Below, one piece after another: positions 1 to 27,446 of a stretch of DNA of 64,000 bases. A model generated the notes under the pieces. That model worked only from the letters and a program-made list of their open reading frames with translations. It was not told the origin of the DNA and searched no databases. The stretch's first letter is position 1. Every line of letters starts with the position of its first letter. Location of the stretch: assembly GCF_053078305.1 (NCBI RefSeq), contig NZ_CP166879.1; one strand, 5' to 3'. The position numbers and the translations under genes were made by a program.

Positions 1-379
1 AACACCGGCTGTCGGTTTTGCGATGGGCCTCGAACGTCTTGTATTGTTAGTACAGGCCGTTAATCCGGAATTTAAAGCCGATCCTGTTGTCGATATATAC
101 CTGGTGGCTTCAGGTGCTGATACACAATCTGCGGCTATGGCATTAGCTGAGCGTCTGCGTGATGAATTACCGGGCGTGAAATTGATGACCAACCACGGCG
201 GCGGCAACTTTAAGAAACAGTTTGCCCGTGCTGATAAATGGGGTGCCCGCGTTGCTGTGGTGCTGGGTGAGTCTGAAGTGGCTAACGGCACAGCAGTAGT
301 GAAGGATTTGCGCTCTGGTGAGCAAACGGCAGTTGCGCAGGATAGCGTAGCCGCGCATTTGCGCACGTTACTGGGTTAA
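1..379 (+). CDS. hisS: histidine--tRNA ligase, C-terminal part (5' end outside window)
   Basis: Track ORF 23..379 in a frame open from position 2; encodes the HisRS anticodon-binding C-terminus (...[33 protein letters not shown]...); followed by yfgM-bamB-der as in E. coli. Confidence 0.9.
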
Positions 380-396
380 GGAAGGAGAAGGACAGC

Positions 397-1017
397 GTGG
401 AAATTTACGAGAACGAAAACGACCAGGTAGAAGCGGTTAAACGCTTTTTTGCTGAAAATGGCAAAGCACTGGCTGTTGGGGTGATTTTGGGCGTTGGCGC
501 ACTGATTGGCTGGCGCTACTGGAACAGCCATCAGGTTGATTCTGCACGCTCCGCTTCTCTTGCCTATCAAAATGCGGTTACCGCAGTGAGCGAAGGCAAA
601 CCGGATAGCATCCCGGCGGCGGAAAAATTTGCTGCTGAAAATAAAAATACTTATGGTGCGCTGGCTTCTTTGGAACTTGCGCAGCAATTTGTTGACAAAA
701 ATGAACTAGAGAAAGCTGCCGCCCAGTTACAACAGGGGCTGGCAGACACGAGCGATGAAAATCTCAAAGCCGTGATAAATCTGCGTCTTGCTCGCGTTCA
801 GGTACAGCTCAAGCAGGCTGATGCCGCGCTGAAAACCCTTGATACCATCAAAGGTGAAGGGTGGGCTGCCATTGTTGCCGACCTGCGTGGTGAAGCATTG
901 CTGAGCAAAGGTGATAAGCAAGGTGCGCGTAGTGCATGGGAAGCAGGCGTGAAAAGCGATGTTACTCCGGCACTGAGCGAAATGATGCAGATGAAAATTA
1001 ATAATTTGTCCATCTGA
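397..1017 (+). CDS. yfgM: YfgM, inner-membrane ancillary SecYEG translocon subunit (TPR-like)
   Basis: 206 aa ORF with GTG start at 397, N-terminal TM helix, sequence recognised as YfgM; GGAG RBS upstream. Confidence 0.92.
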   Translation: MEIYENENDQVEAVKRFFAENGKALAVGVILGVGALIGWRYWNSHQVDSARSASLAYQNAVTAVSEGKPDSIPAAEKFAAENKNTYGALASLELAQQFVDKNELEKAAAQLQQGLADTSDENLKAVINLRLARVQVQLKQADAALKTLDTIKGEGWAAIVADLRGEALLSKGDKQGARSAWEAGVKSDVTPALSEMMQMKINNLSI

Positions 1018-1027
1018 GAGGGACCCG

Positions 1028-2206
1028 ATGCAATTGCGTAAATTACTGCTGCCAGGACTGCTTTCCGTTACCCTTTTAAGCGGCTGTTCGCTGTTTAACA
1101 GCGAAGAAGATGTGGTAAAGATGTCCCCATTGCCAACCGTTGAAAACCAGTTTACGCCGACCACGGCGTGGAGCACTTCCGTTGGTAGCGGCATTGGCAA
1201 CTTCTATTCCAATCTTCATCCGGCACTGGCGGACAACGTTGTCTATGCAGCGGACCGCGCTGGTTTAGTAAAAGCGCTGAATGCGGATGATGGCAAAGAA
1301 ATCTGGTCTGTCAGCCTGGCCGAGAAAGATGGCTGGTTCTCTAAAGAGCCTGCATTACTTTCTGGCGGTGTGACCGTGTCTGGTGGGCATGTCTACATTG
1401 GCAGCGAAAAGGCGCAGGTTTACGCGCTGAATACCAGCGATGGTACTGTGGCATGGCAAACTAAAGTCGCGGGTGAAGCACTTTCGCGCCCGGTGGTCAG
1501 CGACGGTCTGGTGTTAATCCACACCAGTAACGGTCAGTTACAAGCGCTGAACGAAGCTGACGGCGCTGTCAAATGGACAGTTAACCTCGATATGCCTTCG
1601 CTCTCTTTGCGTGGCGAGTCTGCGCCGGCAACGGCTTTTGGTGCGGCCGTCGTGGGTGGCGATAATGGTCGCGTCAGCGCAGTGCTGATGGAACAGGGCC
1701 AGATGATTTGGCAGCAGCGTATTTCCCAGGCGACCGGTTCTACCGAAATTGACCGTCTGAGCGATGTTGACACGACTCCCGTCGTTGTTAACGGCGTTGT
1801 TTTCGCGCTGGCCTATAATGGTAACCTGACGGCGCTTGATCTGCGCAGTGGTCAGATTATGTGGAAACGCGAACTGGGTTCGGTGAATGATTTCATCGTC
1901 GACGGCAATCGCATCTATCTGGTCGATCAAAATGACCGGGTGATGGCGTTGACCATTGATGGCGGCGTTACGCTGTGGACACAAAGCGATCTGCTGCATC
2001 GCCTGCTGACTTCTCCGGTGCTGTATAATGGCAACCTGGTGGTCGGTGACAGTGAAGGTTATCTGCACTGGATTAACGTCGAAGATGGTCGTTTCGTTGC
2101 CCAGCAAAAAGTTGATAGTTCCGGTTTCCAGACTGAACCGGTTGCCGCTGACGGCAAACTGCTGATCCAGGCAAAAGACGGAACCGTGTACTCTATTACA
2201 CGTTAA
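1028..2206 (+). CDS. bamB: BamB, outer-membrane protein assembly lipoprotein (PQQ beta-propeller)
   Basis: 392 aa ORF, lipobox LLSGCSLF, sequence recognised as BamB/YfgL. Confidence 0.95.
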   Translation: MQLRKLLLPGLLSVTLLSGCSLFNSEEDVVKMSPLPTVENQFTPTTAWSTSVGSGIGNFYSNLHPALADNVVYAADRAGLVKALNADDGKEIWSVSLAEKDGWFSKEPALLSGGVTVSGGHVYIGSEKAQVYALNTSDGTVAWQTKVAGEALSRPVVSDGLVLIHTSNGQLQALNEADGAVKWTVNLDMPSLSLRGESAPATAFGAAVVGGDNGRVSAVLMEQGQMIWQQRISQATGSTEIDRLSDVDTTPVVVNGVVFALAYNGNLTALDLRSGQIMWKRELGSVNDFIVDGNRIYLVDQNDRVMALTIDGGVTLWTQSDLLHRLLTSPVLYNGNLVVGDSEGYLHWINVEDGRFVAQQKVDSSGFQTEPVAADGKLLIQAKDGTVYSITR

Positions 2207-2227
2207 TCGTCTCTGTCGTTCACTTTG

Positions 2228-2264
2228 AAAACGGCTCCTGGACAGGGGCCGTTTTCCTGTTTTT
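2228..2264 (+). terminator. hairpin plus T-run after bamB (possible partial terminator/attenuator before der)
   Basis: aaacggc...ggccgtttt stem followed by cctgttttt. Confidence 0.4.
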
Positions 2265-2323
2265 AACAACGACGCGAATATAGCGTGCGTTGTCTGATGA
2301 TTTATAAAAATGAGGCTTTAAAC

Positions 2324-3796
2324 ATGGTACCTGTGGTCGCGCTTGTCGGGCGCCCTAACGTAGGAAAATCCACGTTATTTAACCGTCTAACTCGCACCCG
2401 AGATGCGCTGGTTGCGGATTTCCCGGGTCTGACTCGTGACCGTAAGTACGGTCGTGCGGAAATTGAAGGCCGTGAGTTTATCTGTATTGATACCGGCGGG
2501 ATTGATGGCACAGAAGACGGTGTAGAAACCCGCATGGCGGAACAGTCGCTGCTGGCGATTGAAGAAGCGGACGTCGTACTGTTTATGGTGGATGCGCGCG
2601 CGGGCCTGATGCCGGCAGATGAAGCGATTGCCAAACATCTGCGCTCCCGTGAAAAACCGACCTTCCTGGTGGCAAACAAAACTGACGGTCTGGATCCCGA
2701 TCAGGCAGTGGTTGATTTCTACTCGCTTGGTTTAGGTGAAATCTACCCGATCGCCGCGTCTCACGGTCGTGGCGTATTAAGTCTGCTGGAGCATGTGCTA
2801 CTGCCGTGGATGGAAGATCTCGCACCGCAAGAGGAAGTCGACGAAGACGCTGAATACTGGGCGCAATTTGAAGCGGAAGAGAACGGCGAAGAAGAAGAGG
2901 AAGACGACTTCGACCCGCAAAGTCTGCCGATCAAACTGGCGATTGTGGGTCGTCCGAACGTAGGTAAGTCTACACTCACTAACCGTATTCTTGGTGAAGA
3001 GCGCGTTGTTGTTTATGACATGCCTGGTACGACGCGTGACAGTATCTACATTCCAATGGAACGCGATGGACGTGAGTATGTGCTCATTGACACCGCTGGC
3101 GTACGTAAACGCGGCAAAATCACCGATGCTGTAGAGAAATTCTCCGTAATCAAAACGTTGCAGGCCATTGAAGACGCCAACGTGGTGATGTTAGTGATTG
3201 ATGCGCGCGAAGGTATTTCCGATCAGGATCTCTCGCTGCTGGGCTTTATTCTCAATAGTGGGCGCTCACTTGTCATTGTGGTGAATAAGTGGGATGGCCT
3301 GAGTCAGGAAGTGAAAGAGCAGGTGAAAGAAACGCTGGACTTCCGTCTGGGCTTTATCGATTTTGCTCGTGTGCACTTTATCTCTGCCTTGCACGGCAGT
3401 GGTGTTGGTAACTTGTTTGAATCAGTACGTGAAGCGTATGACAGCTCCACCCGTCGTGTGGGGACCTCTATGCTGACGCGCATCATGACGATGGCTGTTG
3501 AAGATCACCAACCGCCGCTGGTACGCGGTCGTCGTGTGAAGCTGAAATATGCACACGCCGGTGGTTATAATCCGCCGATTGTGGTGATTCACGGTAATCA
3601 GGTGAAAGACCTGCCTGATTCCTACAAGCGTTACTTGATGAACTACTTCCGCAAATCGCTGGACGTAATGGGATCGCCGATTCGTATTCAGTTCAAAGAA
3701 GGGGAAAACCCGTATGCGAACAAGCGTAACACCCTGACGCCAACCCAGATGCGTAAACGTAAGCGTCTGATGAAGCACATCAAGAAAAATAAATAA
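2324..3796 (+). CDS. der: Der/EngA, ribosome-associated double GTPase
   Basis: Two P-loops (GRPNVGKS twice), KH-like C-terminus; true ATG at 2324 (track ORF begins at an upstream in-frame codon, 2285). Confidence 0.95.
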
Positions 3797-3864
3797 TTAT
3801 CCGTAAGTATTTTATCTGCCATTCCCTCTATGAATGTAGAGGGGTGGCTACCGGAGGAATTCAT

Positions 3865-5477
<1,613 letters not shown>

Positions 5478-7143: not shown

Positions 7144-8721
7144 ATGACGGAAAACATTCATAAGCATCGCATCCTCATTCTGGACTTCGGTTCTCAGTAC
7201 ACTCAACTGGTTGCGCGCCGCGTGCGTGAGCTGGGTGTTTACTGCGAACTGTGGGCGTGGGATGTGACAGAAGCACAAATTCGTGACTTCAATCCAAGCG
7301 GCATTATTCTTTCCGGCGGCCCGGAAAGTACTACTGAAGAAAACAGTCCGCGTGCGCCGCAGTATGTCTTTGAAGCAGGCGTACCGGTATTCGGCGTTTG
7401 CTATGGCATGCAGACCATGGCAATGCAGTTGGGCGGTCACGTTGAAGCCTCTAACGAACGTGAATTTGGCTACGCGCAGGTTGAAGTCGTAAACGACAGC
7501 GCACTGGTTCGCGGTATCGAAGATGCGCTGACCGCAGACGGTAAACCGCTGCTCGATGTCTGGATGAGCCACGGCGATAAAGTTACCGCTATCCCGTCCG
7601 ACTTCGTCACCGTAGCCAGCACCGAAAGCTGCCCGTTTGCCATTATGGCTAACGAAGAAAAACGCTTCTATGGCGTACAGTTCCACCCGGAAGTGACTCA
7701 CACCCGCCAGGGTATGCGCATGCTGGAGCGTTTTGTGCGTGATATCTGCCAGTGTGAAGCCCTGTGGACGCCAGCGAAAATTATCGACGATGCTGTAGCT
7801 CGCATCCGCGAGCAGGTAGGCGACGATAAAGTCATCCTCGGCCTCTCTGGTGGTGTGGATTCCTCCGTAACCGCAATGCTGCTGCACCGCGCTATCGGTA
7901 AAAACCTGACTTGCGTATTCGTCGACAACGGCCTGCTGCGTCTCAACGAAGCAGAGCAGGTTCTGGATATGTTTGGCGATCACTTTGGTCTTAACATTGT
8001 TCACGTACCGGCAGAAGATCGCTTCCTGTCAGCGCTGGCTGGCGAAAACGATCCGGAAGCAAAACGTAAAATCATCGGTCGCGTTTTCGTTGAAGTATTC
8101 GATGAAGAAGCGCTGAAACTGGAAGACGTGAAGTGGCTGGCACAGGGCACCATCTACCCTGACGTTATCGAATCTGCGGCGTCTGCAACCGGTAAAGCAC
8201 ACGTCATCAAATCTCACCACAACGTGGGCGGCCTGCCGAAAGAGATGAAGATGGGCCTGGTTGAACCGCTGAAAGAGCTGTTCAAAGACGAAGTGCGTAA
8301 GATTGGTCTGGAGCTGGGTCTACCGTACGACATGCTGTACCGTCACCCGTTCCCGGGACCAGGCCTTGGCGTTCGTGTTCTGGGTGAAGTGAAGAAAGAG
8401 TACTGTGACCTGCTGCGCCGTGCTGACGCCATCTTCATTGAAGAACTGCGTAAAGCGGATCTGTACGACAAAGTCAGCCAGGCGTTCACCGTCTTCCTGC
8501 CAGTACGTTCCGTTGGCGTAATGGGCGATGGTCGTAAGTATGACTGGGTTGTCTCTCTGCGTGCTGTCGAAACCATCGACTTTATGACCGCACACTGGGC
8601 GCATCTGCCGTACGATTTCCTCGGTCGCGTTTCCAACCGCATTATCAATGAAGTGAACGGTATTTCCCGCGTGGTGTATGACATCAGCGGCAAGCCGCCA
8701 GCTACCATTGAGTGGGAGTGA
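7144..8721 (+). CDS. guaA: GMP synthase (glutamine-hydrolysing)
   Basis: 525 aa, class-I GATase N-terminus, [10 protein letters not shown]-loop. Confidence 0.96.
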
Positions 8722-8761
8722 GGCTATTATTTAAACTATTGTTTTATTTGATTTAGTGAGT

Positions 8762-8800
8762 GCCATTGATGATATTGACTGCATTATCAATGGCATTTTT
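8762..8800 (+). terminator. AT-rich hairpin plus T-run downstream of guaA
   Basis: gccattgat (8762..8770) pairs with atcaatggc (8786..8794), followed by attttt. Confidence 0.4.
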
Positions 8801-9105
8801 CATGGTATAAGGCCGACGCTGAATCGAAGATATAGCAAATACCATGTGACTGTATCAGCAAATGCCATGGTATCGACAACCGGGGGCATTGCAGCGCTGT
8901 GCTGATGCCATCGATGCCCGCTTTTAGTCAGAACACTCTCTCGACCCAAGCCTCCAGATCCTTAAATATGCGCCAGAGGAGCACCTCGTGATCGAAATTA
9001 TGAACAAGACAGCCGCCGCTCGGAATCGAAGTCTCCATATGGGTGAATAAGGTTTGCGGAAAACACGCTGAGAAAATAGAAAAGCGTCAATGAAGGGACA
9101 TAGCA

Positions 9106-10386
9106 ATGGCGATTAACGGAGTGGACGGTGTTAGCGCAGTCACCGTGGATGAACTACTCAAGCAAGGCCTTCGGATACCGAACTATCAACGCCCATACAG
9201 TTGGGAAGTATCGACCGCTCTACAACTGGTGGATGATCTCAGCGAAGCTCTTCGAGATACCGAAAGAAAAGATATTCCCTATGTTTTGGGTGCAATCATT
9301 CTTCACGATGATGGTGAGTATCTCAATGTAGTCGACGGACAGCAACGTCTGCTGACTTTGCGAATGATTCTTGCGGCCTTAGATCCGATAAATCACCAAA
9401 TTTCGGTGTCTGGTAACAGAGAAACCTCTGTCTCCCTGGTTTGGATAGAGCTTCAAAGGCGCCTGTCGCAGTTGGAAGATAAAAAAGAATTTTTGGATTT
9501 TATCTGTCACAAATGTCAGTTGGTGCGTATTGTGACGGACGATATTGATGAGGCATTCCGTGTCTTTGATTCCCAGAACTATCGCGGCAAACCGCTTGCC
9601 CCTCATGACTTGCTCAAAGCACACCACCTGCGCGAAATGCACGATGAGTCCGCTGCTATGAAAGTGGCTGTCGTTGAGGCTTGGGAAGCCGTAAATGATG
9701 AGGATCTGGACAGGCTTTTTTCTACTTTTTTATACCGGATATCCAAGTGGTCACGAGGAGAAAGCTCGCTCGAATTTGCTATTCGGGACATCGGTATGTT
9801 CAAGGGAATTTCATCACGATCCCACAGATCATTTTCGCCAAATCTGCGATATCACCTTGCAGCACAAGCCGCTATGCCACTTCTAAGTGCATGGGCGGTG
9901 TCCTCGACACATGATGCTCGAAATGCCGGGCGCAGCCGCTTTCAGCTTGATGCCCCGATAATCGCTGGGCGCTCATTTTTCGAGATGGTGGCATTCATGC
10001 TTGACGAATTGAAGATACTGGAAAAAGAGGTTATCGACAAAGGTTTCAAAAACTTTGGCCCATCTCAAAGTCGCTACCGCTACGTGTACGAATTGTTCAT
10101 TGCCGCTCTGCTTTGCTATACAAACAAGTTTGGCGATGAAGATGTGGATGAAGTGCGAAATAGGTTATTCGCATGGGCATATGCCTTGCGGGTCGAGTTA
10201 CTTCGTGTGCAATTTGTATCTGCTGACAACCGAGCTCGAGGTAAAAACGATGCAAATAAATCGCCTTTTGTTTTGCTACGCAACGCGATGACTGGAAGTG
10301 TTGTCCGCAAACTTCCAATAGCAAGTCAGCCATACAACGATAACCACGAAAAGGAACTCATTGCTTTTATCAAGGGGCTGCAATGA
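9106..10386 (+). CDS. DUF262 (ParB/Srx-like NTPase, GmrS-like) protein; accessory gene A
   Basis: 426 aa; IPNYQRPYSW motif and DGQQR (nt 9334..9348); later FRVFDSQNYRGKPL motif; no HNH/His-Me motif seen in the C-terminal ~270 aa; ATG 9106 with GGGA RBS; stop overlaps the next start (ATGA at 10383..10386). Confidence 0.8.
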   Translation: MAINGVDGVSAVTVDELLKQGLRIPNYQRPYSWEVSTALQLVDDLSEALRDTERKDIPYVLGAIILHDDGEYLNVVDGQQRLLTLRMILAALDPINHQISVSGNRETSVSLVWIELQRRLSQLEDKKEFLDFICHKCQLVRIVTDDIDEAFRVFDSQNYRGKPLAPHDLLKAHHLREMHDESAAMKVAVVEAWEAVNDEDLDRLFSTFLYRISKWSRGESSLEFAIRDIGMFKGISSRSHRSFSPNLRYHLAAQAAMPLLSAWAVSSTHDARNAGRSRFQLDAPIIAGRSFFEMVAFMLDELKILEKEVIDKGFKNFGPSQSRYRYVYELFIAALLCYTNKFGDEDVDEVRNRLFAWAYALRVELLRVQFVSADNRARGKNDANKSPFVLLRNAMTGSVVRKLPIASQPYNDNHEKELIAFIKGLQ

Positions 10387-12335
10387 GCAAGAAGGAGTTG
10401 AAACCCGAACTGCTAACAGTAGGCAAGCTATTCACGGACAATTATCTGATTCCTATTTATCAACGGAACTATGCTTGGCGGGCCGAACAGATTGAGCAAC
10501 TTATCAGCGATATTCAAGACTCGGTTGTTGGGGGCCAGGACGACTATTTTCTTGGAAACCTTGTTGTAATCAAGCGGGGTAGAGAGGACGAGTTCGAGGT
10601 CATAGATGGACAACAACGACTTACAACCCTCTATCTGCTTCTGACCTTCCTGGAGCAAGACGGTGAGGGTGGGAAGCCGTCGATTGGCCATGCAGGCCAC
10701 TTGCAATATGAGTCGCGTGCACGGGCAACGGAAGCCCTGCGGCGAGTAGCACAGGAGGCGGCTAAGGGGCACGTCCGACCGCAGGGCTCCACGAGTAATG
10801 CAGATGCTGGCATCCATGAAGGCTACAGCATCATCAATCAGTTCTTCAAACAAAATGAAACCCTTAATTGCTCACGCGAAAAATTCTCCGATTTCTTGCT
10901 AACGAAGGTTACTGTCGTCCGTGCCTCGCTGCCACCCAATACAGATCTCAATCGCTACTTCGAGATCATGAACACTCGTGGGCAGCAACTCAAGCAGGTT
11001 GATATTGTTAAGGCTCGCCTGATGAGCAAGCTGCCCAATCAATATGAACGCGAATGCTTCGCCTGGGTTTGGGATGCCTGTGCTGAGATGGATTCTTATG
11101 TCCAGATGTCTCTGACCCGTGGTGACACCAGTTTGCGAAACAAAGTATTTGGCGATGAATGGTCCTGGCTGGAGGTGACCAGCTTCGCGTCGTTAATGGA
11201 AAGTCGTCCGCAATCCGGCATCAATTCTTCAAGGCAATCCTCCGAAGGGGTATCGTTGTCCTTGGATGAGGCGTTGTCAAAATACGCTAAAGAGATCGAG
11301 TCAAATTCCACTGAAGACGAGGGCAACGAGCGGTTTCGTTCGACTATTGAGTTTCCGGCCTTTCTGCTACACGTTCTAAGAATTATGAAAGGCGATGAGG
11401 TCGAAGACGAAGGCCAGCTTGACGACAAACGCCTCATCAAGTCATTTGACGACGCTGTAAATAATGTACCCGATGCTAAAGCCGATTGGGTGCGTAACTT
11501 TACATTCATGCTCCTCAAGTGCCGCAACCTCTTCGATGGCTTCATTTTGAAGCGTCAATTCACGGCGAACATCGGTGACGATGGCGATTGGTCTCTCCAG
11601 CGATTGAAGAAAGGCGGCGCGGACAAGAAGCCAACCCCGACGTATATCCATGTTTTCTCGGCCAGCAATGGAAACTTAGAGGAGGACGGCGGTGCTGACC
11701 CACATACCCGAGATGTATTGCTGCTTCAGTCCATGCTTCGGATAACCTACACTTCTCCGCGAACGATGCACTGGATTACCAAAGTTCTTCGCTGGCTATC
11801 CGTCAAAGCCCCTCAAGACGCGAAACATGCGGATCTTGCCGATTTGTTGAAGGGGTATGCCCGCAGCAAGGTCAAAGAGACATTCCCCTTTGAGGAAGAT
11901 CAGCAACCACAAGGGTTTGGTATCAGCCGCATCGTCTTTTCGTATCTCGACTATCTTCTGTTGAGCGATTCCTCAAAACGAGATTTCAAATTTCAGTTCA
12001 GAACTTCCATTGAGCACTTTTATCCACAGCATCCGGACAAAGAACAGTCGGGCGCGGTTGTTTCAGGTTCTAGCCTTAACCTGCTTGGCAACCTTGCGCT
12101 CGTAAGCGTCAGCGCGAACTCAAAATTCAGCAATAGCCTTCCCAGAGCGAAGGCCGAAAACTTCAAGGATACGATTGAACTTCAAAGTCCCAAGCTCAAG
12201 AGAATGGCGGAAATCACTCGAAATACAAGCTGGGACGATCAGCAGATAACAGCTCATCATGAAGAGATGGTGACATTGCTTCGTGATGATGTAAGTCTGG
12301 TGGAGGCAAGCGGAAGATCCTACCCGGGGCGTTGA
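10383..12335 (+). CDS. DUF262-DUF1524 protein (GmrSD/SspE/BrxU-family type IV restriction endonuclease-like); accessory gene B
   Basis: 650 aa; N-terminal IPIYQRNYAW plus DGQQR (10605..10619) plus FEIMNTRGQQL; C-terminal His-Me finger motifs SIEHFYPQHP (12009..12038) and NLLGNLALVSVSANSKFSN (about 12072..12128). Confidence 0.85.
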   Translation: MSKKELKPELLTVGKLFTDNYLIPIYQRNYAWRAEQIEQLISDIQDSVVGGQDDYFLGNLVVIKRGREDEFEVIDGQQRLTTLYLLLTFLEQDGEGGKPSIGHAGHLQYESRARATEALRRVAQEAAKGHVRPQGSTSNADAGIHEGYSIINQFFKQNETLNCSREKFSDFLLTKVTVVRASLPPNTDLNRYFEIMNTRGQQLKQVDIVKARLMSKLPNQYERECFAWVWDACAEMDSYVQMSLTRGDTSLRNKVFGDEWSWLEVTSFASLMESRPQSGINSSRQSSEGVSLSLDEALSKYAKEIESNSTEDEGNERFRSTIEFPAFLLHVLRIMKGDEVEDEGQLDDKRLIKSFDDAVNNVPDAKADWVRNFTFMLLKCRNLFDGFILKRQFTANIGDDGDWSLQRLKKGGADKKPTPTYIHVFSASNGNLEEDGGADPHTRDVLLLQSMLRITYTSPRTMHWITKVLRWLSVKAPQDAKHADLADLLKGYARSKVKETFPFEEDQQPQGFGISRIVFSYLDYLLLSDSSKRDFKFQFRTSIEHFYPQHPDKEQSGAVVSGSSLNLLGNLALVSVSANSKFSNSLPRAKAENFKDTIELQSPKLKRMAEITRNTSWDDQQITAHHEEMVTLLRDDVSLVEASGRSYPGR

Positions 12336-12553
12336 CTTCTTTGAATAACCGCTTTTGGACGAATGTCCCTTGTGGAGTGCAAGTTGTCAGTTTAAAAGTG
12401 TTTTGCGTCGGGCGACACGATCAGTACAGCTCCCAGGTTTTTTTACCATGGTATTTTGTGTGGTATCGACATGCAAAGATAATGCTATTTTGTTGATTTT
12501 ATAGTGTTTTAAGGCGGCATTGATCATCGAGTGGGAATAAACCCTGTACATAT

Positions 12554-12594
12554 TGCTGAAGTTTTCTTTTCGGATAAAACTTCAGCAGATTTTC
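12554..12594 (+). terminator. perfect 12-bp-stem hairpin downstream of the accessory operon
   Basis: tgctgaagtttt (12554..12565) is the exact reverse complement of aaaacttcagca (12576..12587), 10-nt loop, then GATTTTC; a T8 run follows at 12622..12629. Confidence 0.45.
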
Positions 12595-12686
12595 ACAGCA
12601 AACCCCTCTTATCTCTGGAGGTTTTTTTTACGCAAATTAAAAACCCATAACTCTCACGAATCATGGGCTTTGTGGTAGAAAGACGA

Positions 12687-13226
12687 TTAATTAAACCAAC
12701 CGTCCGATTTATTCTCTTCTGCTTTACCCACGCTTTTCATCAAATCGCGACCGCCTTCTGTCACATTTCTGTTAGCGTCAGCTTCAGATTGCACGACATC
12801 AGTTTGCGCGGCTTTGTGCTTCAGCTCCTGGTCGATAAACTCGTTCTCTCGCTTAACGCGGGCTTCTTCTTTCGCCAGCGCCAGCTTTTGTTTCTGAATC
12901 TCTAAGCTGCGCAGCTCATCTTCATAACTTTGATCGCGTTTTTTATCCGCGGTGGCTTCGGCGTCCAGTTTATCCTGACGAGCTTTCTTATCCGCTGCTG
13001 CTGCCGCCGCTCTTTTGTTAGCGGCGGCCTGGGCATTTGCGCGACGTTGCTTCTCTTGCTGGATTTCCCTGTTGCGCTCCGCGACCCATTCGTCATGCTG
13101 CCTTTGCTCTTCATTTTTACCTTGCTGTTCCGCTTCTGCGACAGCAGAGAGTTGATCCTGCAATGATGAGGCGATAGCCGGATAGCTTAAGGAGACCAAG
13201 ATGGCGCAAAGAAAAACTTTCTTCAT
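12687..13226 (-). CDS. yfgI: YfgI, secreted coiled-coil protein
   Basis: 179 aa, signal peptide, K/E/Q-rich; recognised as YfgI. Confidence 0.9.
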   Translation of the reverse strand: MKKVFLCAILVSLSYPAIASSLQDQLSAVAEAEQQGKNEEQRQHDEWVAERNREIQQEKQRRANAQAAANKRAAAAAADKKARQDKLDAEATADKKRDQSYEDELRSLEIQKQKLALAKEEARVKRENEFIDQELKHKAAQTDVVQSEADANRNVTEGGRDLMKSVGKAEENKSDGWFN

Positions 13227-23311: not shown

Positions 23312-23339
23312 AGCCGACTTTAAGAGTCGGCTTTTTTTT
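23312..23339 (+). terminator. rho-independent terminator/attenuator between upp and uraA
   Basis: agccgact ttaag agtcggc followed by T8. Confidence 0.7.
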
Positions 23340-23379
23340 GAGTAAAGCGCCTATAACACATAATACAGAGGATAATACT

Positions 23380-24669
23380 ATGACGCGCCGTGCTATCGGG
23401 GTGAGTGAAAGACCGCCACTTTTACAGACAATCCCGCTTAGTTTGCAACATTTGTTCGCCATGTTTGGTGCAACCGTCCTGGTGCCCGTCTTATTTCATA
23501 TTAACCCGGCGACTGTACTGTTATTTAACGGTATTGGAACGCTGCTGTATCTCTTCATCTGTAAAGGGAAAATTCCGGCTTATCTTGGTTCCAGCTTTGC
23601 CTTTATTTCACCGGTATTGCTGCTGTTGCCGTTGGGGTATGAAGTCGCGCTGGGCGGCTTTATTATGTGCGGCGTGCTGTTTTGCCTGGTTTCTTTTATC
23701 GTGAAGAAAGCGGGGACCGGCTGGCTGGACGTGCTGTTTCCACCTGCGGCAATGGGCGCAATCGTTGCCGTCATCGGTCTGGAGCTGGCGGGCGTAGCTG
23801 CCGGTATGGCGGGTTTACTCCCGGCTGAAGGGCAAACGCCAGACTCCAAAACCATCATCATCTCTATTACCACCCTGGCGGTCACGGTTTTAGGTTCCGT
23901 GCTGTTCCGTGGTTTCCTGGCAATTATCCCGATTTTAATTGGCGTGCTGGTGGGGTACGCGCTCTCTTTCGCAATGGGAATTGTCGATACCACGCCGATT
24001 ATTAATGCTCACTGGTTTGCGCTGCCAACCCTCTATACGCCGCGCTTCGAGTGGTTTGCCATTCTGACTATTCTGCCAGCGGCGTTAGTGGTTATTGCCG
24101 AACACGTAGGGCACCTGGTAGTAACGGCTAATATCGTCAAAAAAGATCTGCTGCGCGATCCAGGTCTGCACCGTTCGATGTTTGCTAACGGCTTGTCGAC
24201 CGTGATTTCCGGCTTCTTTGGCTCCACGCCAAACACCACCTACGGGGAAAACATTGGCGTGATGGCGATCACCCGTGTTTACAGTACCTGGGTTATCGGC
24301 GGGGCGGCGATTTTCGCTATCCTGCTTTCCTGCGTCGGTAAACTGGCTGCCGCTATCCAGATGATCCCATTGCCGGTGATGGGCGGCGTTTCGCTGCTGC
24401 TTTATGGTGTCATCGGTGCTTCCGGTATTCGTGTTTTGATCGAATCGAAAGTGGATTACAACAAAGCACAGAACCTGATCCTGACTTCCGTGATTTTGAT
24501 CATCGGCGTCAGTGGCGCGAAGGTAAACATCGGCGCGGCGGAGTTGAAAGGTATGGCGCTGGCGACCATCGTCGGTATCGGCTTAAGTTTGATTTTCAAA
24601 CTGATCAGTGTGCTGCGCCCTGAAGAAGTGGTGCTGGACGCAGAAGACGCGGATATAACAGACAAATAA
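23380..24669 (+). CDS. uraA: uracil:H+ symporter
   Basis: 429 aa from ATG 23380 ([24 protein letters not shown]...), polytopic NCS2-family sequence. Confidence 0.95.
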
Positions 24670-25982: not shown

Positions 25983-27446
25983 TTACATCTTGGTATAAGG
26001 CTTAAAGCGTTCCTGCAGCTGGCGCAACTGGTCGATGCGCGCATCGTAACGCGCTTGTTGCAGGCTGCCTAATTTCACCTGCGAACTGGCGCTACTCAAC
26101 AGCGAAATAGCCTGATCGAGTCGCCCGGCGAGCGCATAACCTTCTGCTCGCGCAGCCAGTTCCTGATCGCGGTTATTTAGCGCGGCTTCCGCCTGTGCCA
26201 GTAAATCCCAGCCGTTACTGTCATCTTTATTATTAAAGGTGTAGCGATTAAGAATATTGGCCGCTTCTTGTGGTTGACCGCCTTGTAGATAAGCGTTCGC
26301 CAGGTTGAGCTGCAACACAGGATTGGTGCGCAAATCGCGGGCATTTTTCAGACGATTGATCGCCTCATTGGCTTTGTTTTGCCCAAGATCGATATCAGTA
26401 GCCAGATCGAGATACCATGCGTTGCCAGGTTCTGCCGCCAGTAACGGTTGCAGCGTTTTACGCGCCTCGTCGTATTTATTGGCTTCCATCGCCTGTAAAG
26501 CACGACCATATTGTGCTGCTCGTTGCTGACGAACGTTTCCTTTCGCCCATTCATCCAGCAAATCACTGGTGAGCTGGTTACGTCCGGAATTATACATCCC
26601 CAGTGTGCGCGCTTTCGCCAGATAGAAATCTTCCGACGACTGCACCACCATCGGGCGCATCTGATTAGCACGGTTGCGGGCATCTGCCAGACGACTTTCC
26701 GGCAACGGGTGAGTCAATAAAATTTCCGGCGGACGCGAGGAGTAACGCGCCTGATCGAGTAATTTTTCGAGGAAGGTCGGCATCGCCTGCGGATCGAATC
26801 CTGAGCGTTGCAGCACCTGAATACCAATGCGGTCCGCTTCCTGTTCATTTTGCTGGGTGAAACTGATCATCCCCTGACGCGTTCCCGCCAGTGTACCGGT
26901 CAGCGCCGCCATCCCCGCCTGCGGACTGGCCATCGCCAGTAAAATAGAACCTAACGCGCCGACCCAGGTCAGCGGCGCGCTGCGCTGCTGATCTTCCATC
27001 GCTCGCGCCAGGTGACGTTGGGTGACGTGGGAGATTTCGTGCGCCATAACTGAAGCCAGTTGACTTTCGTTATCGGAATAACGGAACAGGGCAGAGTGCA
27101 GCACCACGTTGCCGCCAAAGAAAGCAAAGGCGTTAATTTCGTCGTTGTTGATCAGAAAGAAATGAAACGGTGTCTTAACCGAATTGGCATGCGAAACCAG
27201 ACGCATCCCCAGCGAATTAATATATTGCGTTAACAGCGGGTCATTAATTAACGGCGCGCTGCCGCGTAGCTGGCGGACATAATAGTCGCCCATCTGCATT
27301 TCCTGACCAATGGAAAGCGTGCTTCCTGCGGAGGTTCCCATATCCGGCAAGGTGTCTGCGCTGTCGGCAAACGCCGGGGCTACCTGACCAATGGTCATAG
27401 CAGCAATGAGGGTTGCAACCAGGTTTTTTTTCAACTGCCTGAACAT
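25983..27446 (-). CDS. bepA: BepA, periplasmic beta-barrel assembly-enhancing M48 metalloprotease with TPR domain
   Basis: 487 aa, signal peptide, HEISH zinc motif; recognised as YfgC/BepA. Confidence 0.94.

Follow-up and report, generated by a model that had tools for sequence, protein, structure and literature searches.

The window, a 64,000 nt stretch of DNA, harbours an accessory block between guaA and yfgI. This interval was found to hold only two ORFs, both of the GmrSD type, and, as originally predicted, no integrase, transposase or tRNA gene. The deduced product of the first gene contains a GmrSD_N domain (Pfam, E = 1e-27) and DUF7834, while that of the second combines GmrSD_N (E = 2e-33) with the nuclease domain GmrSD_C (E = 1e-13) and resembles type IV restriction enzymes. 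The cargo matches PADLOC HEC-06 at E = 1e-28 to 2e-37; NCBIfam contains no family for either cargo protein, nor for YfgI. As the pair encompasses both a DUF262 NTPase-like and a DUF1524 nuclease domain, the cargo was shown, on the basis of predicted domain content, to represent a GmrSD-like defence system composed of two genes and akin to type IV restriction. With the GmrSD/DUF262-DUF1524 type IV enzymes (PADLOC HEC-06, Orf5 and SspE-like) it has in common a GmrSD_N domain in either protein, with GmrSD_C added in the second, but the pair in the window consists of two genes, with DUF7834 replacing the nuclease domain in the first product. The features of the locus are listed in Table 1.

Table 1. 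Features of the guaA-yfgI region, given as positions in the window
Feature	Position	Strand	Remarks
guaA	7144..8721	+	Last codons ATT GAG TGG GAG TGA contain the left att core
guaA 3' end segment	8692..8721	+	Imperfect repeat at 12511-12540
Left att core GAGTGGGA (attL; attLR type GAGTGGGAGTGA)	8710..8717	+	True left junction; core as published (PMC9376610)
Left arm of the unit, non-coding	8722..9105	+	92-100% identity across all module contexts
13-nt inverted repeat followed by T run	8761..8795	+	Overlaps sites at 8760 (-) and 8790 (+)
Site pair ATGGCAT-N5-ATGGTAT	8790..8808	+	Family-array offsets 0 and +12; includes CATGGTAT at 8801
Inverted site ATACCAT(G)	8839..8845	-	Family-array offset +49
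Site ATGGTAT	8867..8873	+	Family-array offset +77; overlaps upstream 11-mer 8868-8878
Cargo gene 1, 426 aa	9106..10386	+	GmrSD_N (DUF262) plus DUF7834
Cargo gene 2, 650 aa	10383..12335	+	GmrSD_N plus GmrSD_C (DUF1524-type nuclease)
Right arm of the unit, non-coding	12336..12528	+	Common to all contexts
Site pair ATGGTAT-N5-GTGGTAT	12448..12466	+	-81/-69 from core; second site overlaps downstream 11-mer 12461-12471
Right att core GAGTGGGA (attR)	12529..12536	+	True right junction
Divergent allele of native guaA-yfgI spacer	12541..12686	+	Backbone, outside the unit
yfgI	12687..13226	-	Right-hand backbone gene

Short direct repeats near the ends of this block had been reported in the original prediction; the repeats themselves were confirmed, while the interpretation attached to them was partly supported. 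The 11-mer TGGTATCGACA is present on the forward strand at the two positions claimed, 8868-8878 and 12461-12471, and a search of the 64-kb window identified a third copy at 23982-23992 (-). The chance expectation for this sequence is 0.01 per window, and three or more copies were obtained in 0 of 100 shuffles. The third copy is located antisense within the long uraA ORF (23338-24669) and was treated as a chance occurrence. The related motif CATGGTAT was found at all three positions previously given (8801, 8866 and 12447, forward strand), as well as at 8839 (-), which had been missed, and at 26412 (-). A better-defined signal than either of these motifs is the degenerate pair RTGGYAT-N5-RTGGYAT, expected at 1.2e-7 per position (~0.016 per window), which occurs exactly twice, at 8790 and 12448, when both strands of the window (128 kb) are searched.

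The boundaries of the insertion were established by comparison with other genomes. In empty-site Escherichia coli genomes the guaA-yfgI spacing is 92-94 bp (n=3, read directly), and the same compact layout is seen in most of 5,426 genomes. The empty-site spacer contains one GAGTGGGA, a single core at the same place in guaA, and no copy of TGGTATCGACA or CATGGTAT; it had been proposed that an empty-site comparison of both flanks might reveal a single-copy motif, but neither motif is single-copy there, both being absent. The two-gene GmrSD-like block was observed in four contexts, namely alone at guaA, downstream of either of two integrase-bearing elements (EcPF16 and MB15), and in Klebsiella plasmids. 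Junctions were resolved by multi-context alignments, as MAFFT alignment of the window flanks against empty sites alone was hard to interpret. Homology across the four contexts opens where GAGTGGGAGTGA meets GGCTATT and closes at ATCATCGAGTGGG, and all four share the stretch between the two GAGTGGGA copies, which are 3819 bp apart (core to core). Downstream of the right core, the intact native spacer follows directly in EcPF16 and MB15, and in 468 plasmid records homology stops within the core. The unit was thus shown to be bounded by the GIsul2/PIME-family core GAGTGGGA in two directly repeated copies.

Both 11-mers are therefore internal to the unit, at ~146-150 nt (left) and 57 nt (right) from the cores. 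The finding of a perfect 11-mer in direct orientation close to each end of the accessory block, well in excess of chance expectation, would be reminiscent of a target-site duplication made by a transposase upon insertion of the cassette. However, these repeats do not abut the insert but lie ~146 nt and 57 nt inside DNA common to all four contexts, and they are not single-copy in the empty site, where they are missing altogether. Furthermore, no transposase is encoded, no terminal inverted repeats were found besides the motif itself, and in EcPF16 and MB15 the native spacer restarts exactly after GAGTGGGA. An origin as a target-site duplication, as entertained originally, can hence be set aside with near certainty. 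The same internal position, together with an empty site devoid of either motif, contradicts the suggestion that the repeats represent backbone sequence split by the insertion. A third suggestion, that they are remnants of a recombination core, holds in part: the actual core is GAGTGGGA and not the 11-mer, although the latter is recombination-related in that it overlaps positionally conserved, arm-type-like sites.

The insertion leaves guaA intact, since the right core copy belongs to a pseudo-guaA 3' end that was shown to be carried by the element itself (73% identity over 26 nt between 8692-8717 and 12511-12536). The final codon of guaA, GAG, differs synonymously from the native GAA, a change seen at every copy of the module's left junction. 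The hairpin at 8761-8795 may serve as a replacement terminator for guaA; it was not called by a stricter, simple terminator scan. On the right-hand side, a terminator-like sequence (12605-12621) with a T run is located within the divergent spacer allele. In strain A30, the left arm is 100% identical to that of the window, yet the native spacer is present instead of the divergent one.

The core GAGTGGGA is that of GIsul2, for which a set of three att sites, namely attL, attLR and attR, has been described, and the integrase-less CR2-sul2 unit of which was shown to undergo Int-dependent, RecA-independent excision and integration (PMC9376610). PIMEs integrated at the guaA attB, including PIME1EcPF16, have been reported to carry defence systems, and a 'previously characterized' system from PIMEs to be active against T2, T4 and T6 (bioRxiv 10.64898/2026.01.12.698999). 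For a GmrSD-type system such as the present pair, restriction of phage DNA carrying hmC or glucosyl-hmC would be expected. In EcPF16 and MB15, a tyrosine integrase gene follows guaA and the order is int, core, module, core. The EcPF16 integrase (WP_049590375.1) is 87% identical to that of the canonical GIsul2 of plasmid R485, and PIME core genes are present in EcPF16, MB15 and R485. The acquisition mechanism, originally described as not obvious, has thereby found an answer, as other E. coli genomes encode a cognate tyrosine integrase beside guaA, with the same module located downstream of it. The segment 8710-12536 is likely to represent a 3.8-kb integrase-less unit that was inserted site-specifically by a tyrosine recombinase at an attB overlapping the last codons of guaA. 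This accounts for an acquisition route at guaA-yfgI in a block seemingly without mobility genes, and provides exact junctions (8710-8717 and 12529-12536) that can be used in annotating the guaA hotspot.

The module shares attB, core and arm-site geometry with the GIsul2/PIME family and is physically located within such islands in EcPF16 and MB15. By the definition of the PIME preprint itself it is not a PIME, as no int, alpA, repA/C, traJ or trbJKL was found in 8722-12528. Its features are instead those of a CR2-sul2-like unit: the attB is at the guaA 3' end, direct GAGTGGGA copies flank it with homology ending there, and it lacks its own integrase, an internal attLR-like site connecting it with an element that carries one. 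Both units are bounded by two GAGTGGGA cores with the same left 12-mer GAGTGGGAGTGA, lie beyond an integrase-bearing element located at the 3' end of guaA, and carry an RTGGYAT pair at -80/-68 in the right arm. They differ in cargo (ISCR2 plus sul2 versus the GmrSD-like defence pair) and in the left arm, where the module has kept four integrase-proximal RTGGYAT sites and is devoid of the CR2 sequence CACTGGCTGGCA. The module is, unlike CR2-sul2, mostly found solo at guaA (52 genomes), and the mobility of CR2-sul2 is experimental, that of the module putative. CIMEs are cis-mobilisable, att-flanked, integrase-less relatives of ICEs and IMEs in Streptococcus. Like these, the module is att-flanked and devoid of recombination genes, occurs either by itself or in tandem with an element bearing an integrase, and is positioned at the 3' end of a housekeeping gene; it is associated with another integrase family and another host phylum, and the term is not used for guaA elements in the GIsul2 and PIME papers.

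The 11-mers were shown to overlap 7-mer RTGGYAT sites, which in either arm keep a fixed distance from the core, an arrangement that extends across the integrase family. The pair RTGGYAT-N5-RTGGYAT is located at -80/-81 and -68/-69 in seven independent right arms of only 28-48% identity; in an eighth (VREC0864) the -68 site is kept and the -80 site is degenerate (AGGGTAT). GIsul2 attLR and attR are among the arms compared. On the opposite side, the core precedes int by 316-326 nt at 76 of the 80 loci from alpha-, beta- and gammaproteobacteria, and RTGGYAT sites form conserved islands in 67 distinct left arms (63% mean identity). The left array of the window (0/+12/-49/+77) agrees with the family offsets (0/+12/-49,50/+77,78), and an HMM of family left arms identified a single locus in the window (8779-8877, forward, E = 2.8e-6), with a weaker reverse-strand echo at the same locus (8883-8835, E = 0.0012) that is due to the palindromic arrangement of the sites. 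The CTGGCA repeats of family left arms are absent from that of the module. The left-arm sites of the family are degenerate, given that the strict pair regex was matched by only 35 of 68 left arms, and they are not strictly required, as the mobile CR2-sul2 unit has no RTGGYAT sites in its left arm.

The presence of a third 11-mer in uraA by chance, and the finding that its CGACA extension is not conserved in the arms of other elements, could be taken to mean that the identity of the two 11-mers is a meaningless coincidence. Against this, the 7-mer part falls on sites whose position has been maintained in eight right arms and in dozens of left arms, and the 128 kb searched contain no paired motif outside the two arms, rendering such a coincidence highly improbable; for the 7-mer core, it was rejected on account of the family-wide positional conservation. 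The CGACA extension, which turns two 7-mers into one identical 11-mer, appears to be specific to this module and is probably in part an extended site consensus (ATGGTATYGA) and in part chance.

A non-core motif repeated in both arms, at distances conserved across diverged elements, has the properties of arm-type integrase sites, and the EcPF16 integrase was found to contain an arm-type DNA-binding domain (PF13356, Arm-DNA-bind_3, E = 3.2e-19) in addition to Phage_integrase. In view of these fixed positions and of this domain in the cognate integrase, the RTGGYAT repeats are probably arm-type sites. Mixed direct and inverted sites on both sides of the core constitute the classical attP architecture of lambda- and P4-type integrases. 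The family resembles these systems in its short non-core motif, which recurs on either arm at fixed distances, direct as well as inverted, and in the N-terminal arm-binding domain of the integrase; the RTGGYAT sequence and layout are peculiar to the GIsul2/PIME family, and the sites described here are putative. Arm sites are not mentioned in the experimental papers on these elements (PMC9376610; bioRxiv 10.64898/2026.01.12.698999).

Alternatively, RTGGYAT could bind another factor, such as the AlpA excisionase or a regulator of int or cargo, or could be structural, as part of a terminator hairpin. The left array of integrase-bearing elements immediately precedes int and could act as an operator there, the 8760 and 8790 sites form a hairpin followed by a T run, and CR2-sul2 is mobile without left-arm sites. 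Conversely, the motif is found in both arms at a fixed core distance, even 10-16 kb from int, the integrase has a domain dedicated to arm binding, and the mixed direct and inverted sites flanking the core correspond to the classical attP layout. A role other than that of integrase arm sites is thus considered improbable. Under the arm-site reading, candidate sites can now be named for an integrase family that spreads sul2, other resistance units and defence systems in Pseudomonadota; if confirmed, they would help to predict which integrase-less guaA islands remain mobilisable.

We infer that the RTGGYAT sites would be bound by the N-terminal arm-binding domain of the family integrase, and that this integrase would be supplied in trans by a GIsul2/PIME-type element, as for the experimentally moved CR2-sul2, probably together with AlpA. 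Excision is predicted to join 12528 to 8718 (ATCATC-GAGTGGGA-GTGAGGCTATT), and the resulting circle would rebuild an attP mimicking that of the integrase-bearing element.

The module might instead be a static remnant of a decayed element, its arm sites being fossils and its spread depending only on homologous recombination at guaA-yfgI or on hitch-hiking in larger elements and plasmids. Retention of the integrase-proximal sites in the left arm fits a deletion derivative, and in 11 genomes the module is accompanied by the divergent spacer. Moreover, the EcPF16-type element is always accompanied by the module, with no full-length match to this element joined directly to the native spacer, although the final ~115-130 nt of its right arm do occur at the native-spacer junction in other genomes. 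The tandem structures could also have arisen when incoming elements integrated upstream of a module that was itself resident and static, or through attL-attLR recombination. In contrast, precise junctions at the core connect the module with guaA as well as with at least three upstream arms that are unrelated (EcPF16, MB15 and a plasmid remnant), and the module has two right-hand partners, native spacer and plasmid DNA, the latter meeting it at GAGTGGG/T. Both cores and all sites have also remained intact in alleles of the module with a left arm of only ~94% identity to that of the window, and the analogous CR2-sul2 unit is experimentally mobile (PMC9376610). A static remnant is therefore regarded as unlikely. 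Spread among E. coli could nevertheless proceed by homologous recombination through guaA and yfgI, and the divergent right spacer of the window hints at such an import.

On the reading of a unit mobilised in trans, the GmrSD-like defence pair constitutes a separable, att-bounded unit, except with regard to its separability from the EcPF16-type element itself. More tentatively, and with somewhat more doubt than confidence, we propose that the RTGGYAT arrays are hitherto undescribed arm-type sites of the very widespread GIsul2/PIME integrases and, at the same time, that small integrase-less defence cassettes with a complete attP mimic (core and both arms) may act as exchangeable satellites, moving between unoccupied guaA sites, attR copies of various resident elements, and plasmids. 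If so, the result would be a system in which immune genes are exchanged as cassettes, driven by an integrase acting in trans. The unit was detected in ~80 complete E. coli genomes (left arm matched in 81 and right arm in 79), while 464 of the 468 plasmid records that contain it were derived from Klebsiella.

A search of both strands of the window located the 11-mer TGGTATCGACA at 8868–8878 and 12461–12471 (both + strand) and the related 8-mer CATGGTAT at 8801, 8866 and 12447, as originally noted, along with additional copies of TGGTATCGACA at 23982–23992 (– strand) and of CATGGTAT at 8839 and 26412 (both – strand). By chance, the window would hold approximately 0.01 copies of TGGTATCGACA, and three or more copies arose in none of 100 shuffles. 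The third copy is antisense within the uraA ORF (23338–24669) and was treated as a chance occurrence. The interval between guaA and yfgI contains two ORFs only, in agreement with the original remark that the block carries no integrase, transposase or tRNA.

Backbone genes and ORFs of the guaA-yfgI region (window coordinates)
Feature	Position	Strand	Remark
guaA	7144–8721		left-hand backbone gene
ORF1	9106–10386		between guaA and yfgI
ORF2	10383–12335		between guaA and yfgI
yfgI	12687–13226	–	right-hand backbone gene

Among 5,426 complete E. coli genomes compared with window 8400–13000, 78 were shown to contain most of this region, and in nearly all remaining genomes guaA and yfgI lay within ~720 bp of query-matching sequence. 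Three empty-site genomes have 92–94 bp between the guaA stop and the yfgI stop. Their guaA-yfgI spacer contains neither TGGTATCGACA nor CATGGTAT, and a single copy of GAGTGGGA, the 8-mer recombination core of GIsul2/PIME-family integrases, is present in the final guaA codons. The motifs, which the proposed alignment might have found to be single-copy at the empty site, are thus zero-copy there, which rules out a target-site duplication as well as backbone sequence divided by the insertion.

The two-gene block was observed in at least four contexts: alone, immediately 3' of guaA (52 genomes); after a 15-kb island that opens with a tyrosine integrase beside guaA (strain EcPF16 and relatives); after another island, which has a relaxase and an integrase of a different lineage (~75% DNA identity; strain MB15); and on Klebsiella-type plasmids, flanked by IS1 and phd/umuDC (468 plasmid records, including 464 from Klebsiella). 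Edge alignments and a scan of all cores placed the left edge of common homology at GAGTGGGAGTGA/GGCTATT (window 8710–8721/8722; the slash marks the junction) and the right edge at ...ATCATCGAGTGGG(A) (12529–12536), with the same edges in every context examined and a core-to-core length of 3,819 bp. In EcPF16 and MB15, the intact native spacer directly follows the right core (GAGTGGGAATGA/TTTGACCCTGCAC...). The right core sits in a sequence that imperfectly repeats the guaA 3' end (8692–8717 versus 12511–12536, 73% over 26 nt); a gene's 3' end is typically copied in this way by elements that insert there and leave the gene active. Both 11-mers are internal to the unit: the first is ~146 nt in from the left end, and 57 nt separate the second from the right core. 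The suggestion that they are remnants of a recombination core or a target duplication found partial support, in that they are linked to recombination but represent neither a target duplication nor a core.

GAGTGGGA has been published as the att core of GIsul2, whose three 19-bp att sites, named attL, attLR and attR, have this core in common (Zhang et al., PMC9376610). In recA-deficient E. coli, the GIsul2 integrase excises and integrates the whole island at attB downstream of guaA, and does the same with CR2-sul2, an integrase-less unit bounded by attLR and attR (PMC9376610). GIsul2 attLR contains the same 12-mer as the left core of the module, GAGTGGGAGTGA, so that the window holds an integrase-less unit in the structural position of CR2-sul2, but alone at guaA. 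The EcPF16 integrase exhibits 87% protein identity to that of canonical GIsul2 on plasmid R485, and encompasses Arm-DNA-bind_3 (E = 3e-19), central and catalytic domains. The EcPF16 island corresponds to PIME1EcPF16, and guaA-integrating mobilisable elements are described as carrying defence systems (2026 preprint, bioRxiv 10.64898/2026.01.12.698999). The window feature is an integrase-less unit with att boundaries that belongs to the GIsul2/PIME integrase family; its anatomy and exact core reuse are shown across several contexts, and we infer that it was put at guaA by an integrase of the family working in trans. Its cargo (ORF1, GmrSD_N and DUF7834; ORF2, GmrSD_N and GmrSD_C; top PADLOC matches to HEC-06, Orf5 and SspE-type models) is a GmrSD-like defence pair, probably of the type IV restriction kind. 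Its description as a separable defence module is a modest addition.

The 7-mer RTGGYAT, located inside both repeats, was shown to be conserved in position across the GIsul2/PIME family. Eight independent right arms were compared (window module, EcPF16 and MB15 islands, VCSW5, VREC0864, a plasmid remnant, and GIsul2 attLR and attR); the six non-GIsul2 arms exhibited 28–48% mutual identity in fixed register. RTGGYAT-N5-RTGGYAT was found at –80/–81 and –68/–69 from the core in seven of the eight; in VREC0864, the –68 site is accompanied by AGGGTAT, a degenerate form, at –80. In the window, the second site of the pair (12460–12466) is overlapped by the downstream 11-mer. On both strands of the window, the pair occurs only at 8790 and 12448 (~0.016 expected).

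For the left arms, an integrase search of genome contigs yielded 80 alpha-, beta- and gammaproteobacterial loci, with the core located 316–326 nt upstream of the int start codon in 76. Alignment of 67 distinct arms (63% mean pairwise identity) revealed conserved islands at the core, a terminator, CTGGCA repeats and RTGGYAT sites, the last at common offsets of 0, +12, –31, –49/50, +77/78 and +147/148 from the first site; the window module has 0, +12, –49 and +77 (8790, 8802, 8839 and 8867). A profile HMM made solely from these integrase-proximal arms matched the window at a single locus, 8779–8877 (forward, E = 2.8e-6), ending within the upstream 11-mer, with a weaker reverse-strand match (8883–8835, E = 0.0012) because the sites are arranged palindromically. 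CTGGCA constitutes a second conserved repeat family, ~10–40 and 85–115 nt after the core in integrase-proximal arms (L010–L089) and just after GIsul2 attLR (CGGGCACTGGCTGGCA; L094:12901–12916), and may represent AlpA/excisionase or host-factor sites.

Given motif placement and the integrase's arm-binding domain, the most economical reading of RTGGYAT is that of putative arm-type integrase sites; recombination between the two cores would then give a circle in which an attP-like site, with such sites flanking the core, is rebuilt. AlpA or a regulator, in place of Int, could instead bind the sites. RTGGYAT sites are absent from the left arm of CR2-sul2, which is mobile nonetheless. The CTGGCA repeats seen in left arms of the family are missing from the window's module. 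Under the arm-site reading, the conserved RTGGYAT architecture is a modest novelty, described in neither of two experimental papers on GIsul2/PIME elements. The CGACA extension, through which two of the sites become identical across 11 nt, shows no conservation in other elements; it agrees in part with an extended consensus, ATGGTATYGA, and we regard the remainder as probable chance.

Any present-day mobility of the module is putative. Tandem arrangements could reflect integration of islands upstream of a module already in place; a search for an EcPF16-type island without the module found none. Spread within E. coli may also owe much to homologous recombination; the module is linked to a divergent spacer allele (12541–12686, right core to yfgI) found in only 11 of the 5,426 genomes (the window and 10 others), always together with the module. 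This strongly diverged form of the native 92-bp guaA-yfgI spacer has TAA instead of TGA after the core and two extra segments, one a perfect 12-nt hairpin (12554–12565/12576–12587); together these traits suggest import from a divergent lineage through homologous recombination. Active mobility and the arm-site assignment are less certain in view of these caveats; the junction assignment is unaffected.

The window left arm (8722–9105) is 100% identical to that of strain A30, and the right arm plus spacer (12336–12686) to those of Res13-Sevr-PER07-33 and TB06052; the source genome may be a mosaic or lie outside the collection searched. Plasmid copies (L006:3780–4388 and L007:6500–7106) have the right-arm remnant of another element upstream, with ATGGCAT-N5-ATGGCAT at –80/–68, and their right junction beside phd/umuDC, GAGTGGG/TAACA, resembles secondary-site integration. 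The native spacer is broken by IS66 (EcPF16, L008:34096–36500) or IS200C in some genomes, and MB15 has an ISSen4 copy within the left arm of the module (L090:16864–17984). In E. coli E2348/69 (L009:20323–40322), a prophage with its own tyrosine integrase directly follows the guaA stop codon, so that integrating elements of at least two kinds use the guaA 3' end; located upstream, near der, are a further integrase and a Hailong defence system. Window 1–4002, with a large adhesion-domain protein gene upstream of xseA, is the same variable region that carries sinH/sinI-type genes in E2348/69. Just 3' of guaA, an inverted repeat of 13 nt with a T run after it (8761–8795) overlaps two RTGGYAT-type sites and may stand in for the native guaA terminator, displaced to the far side of the unit.
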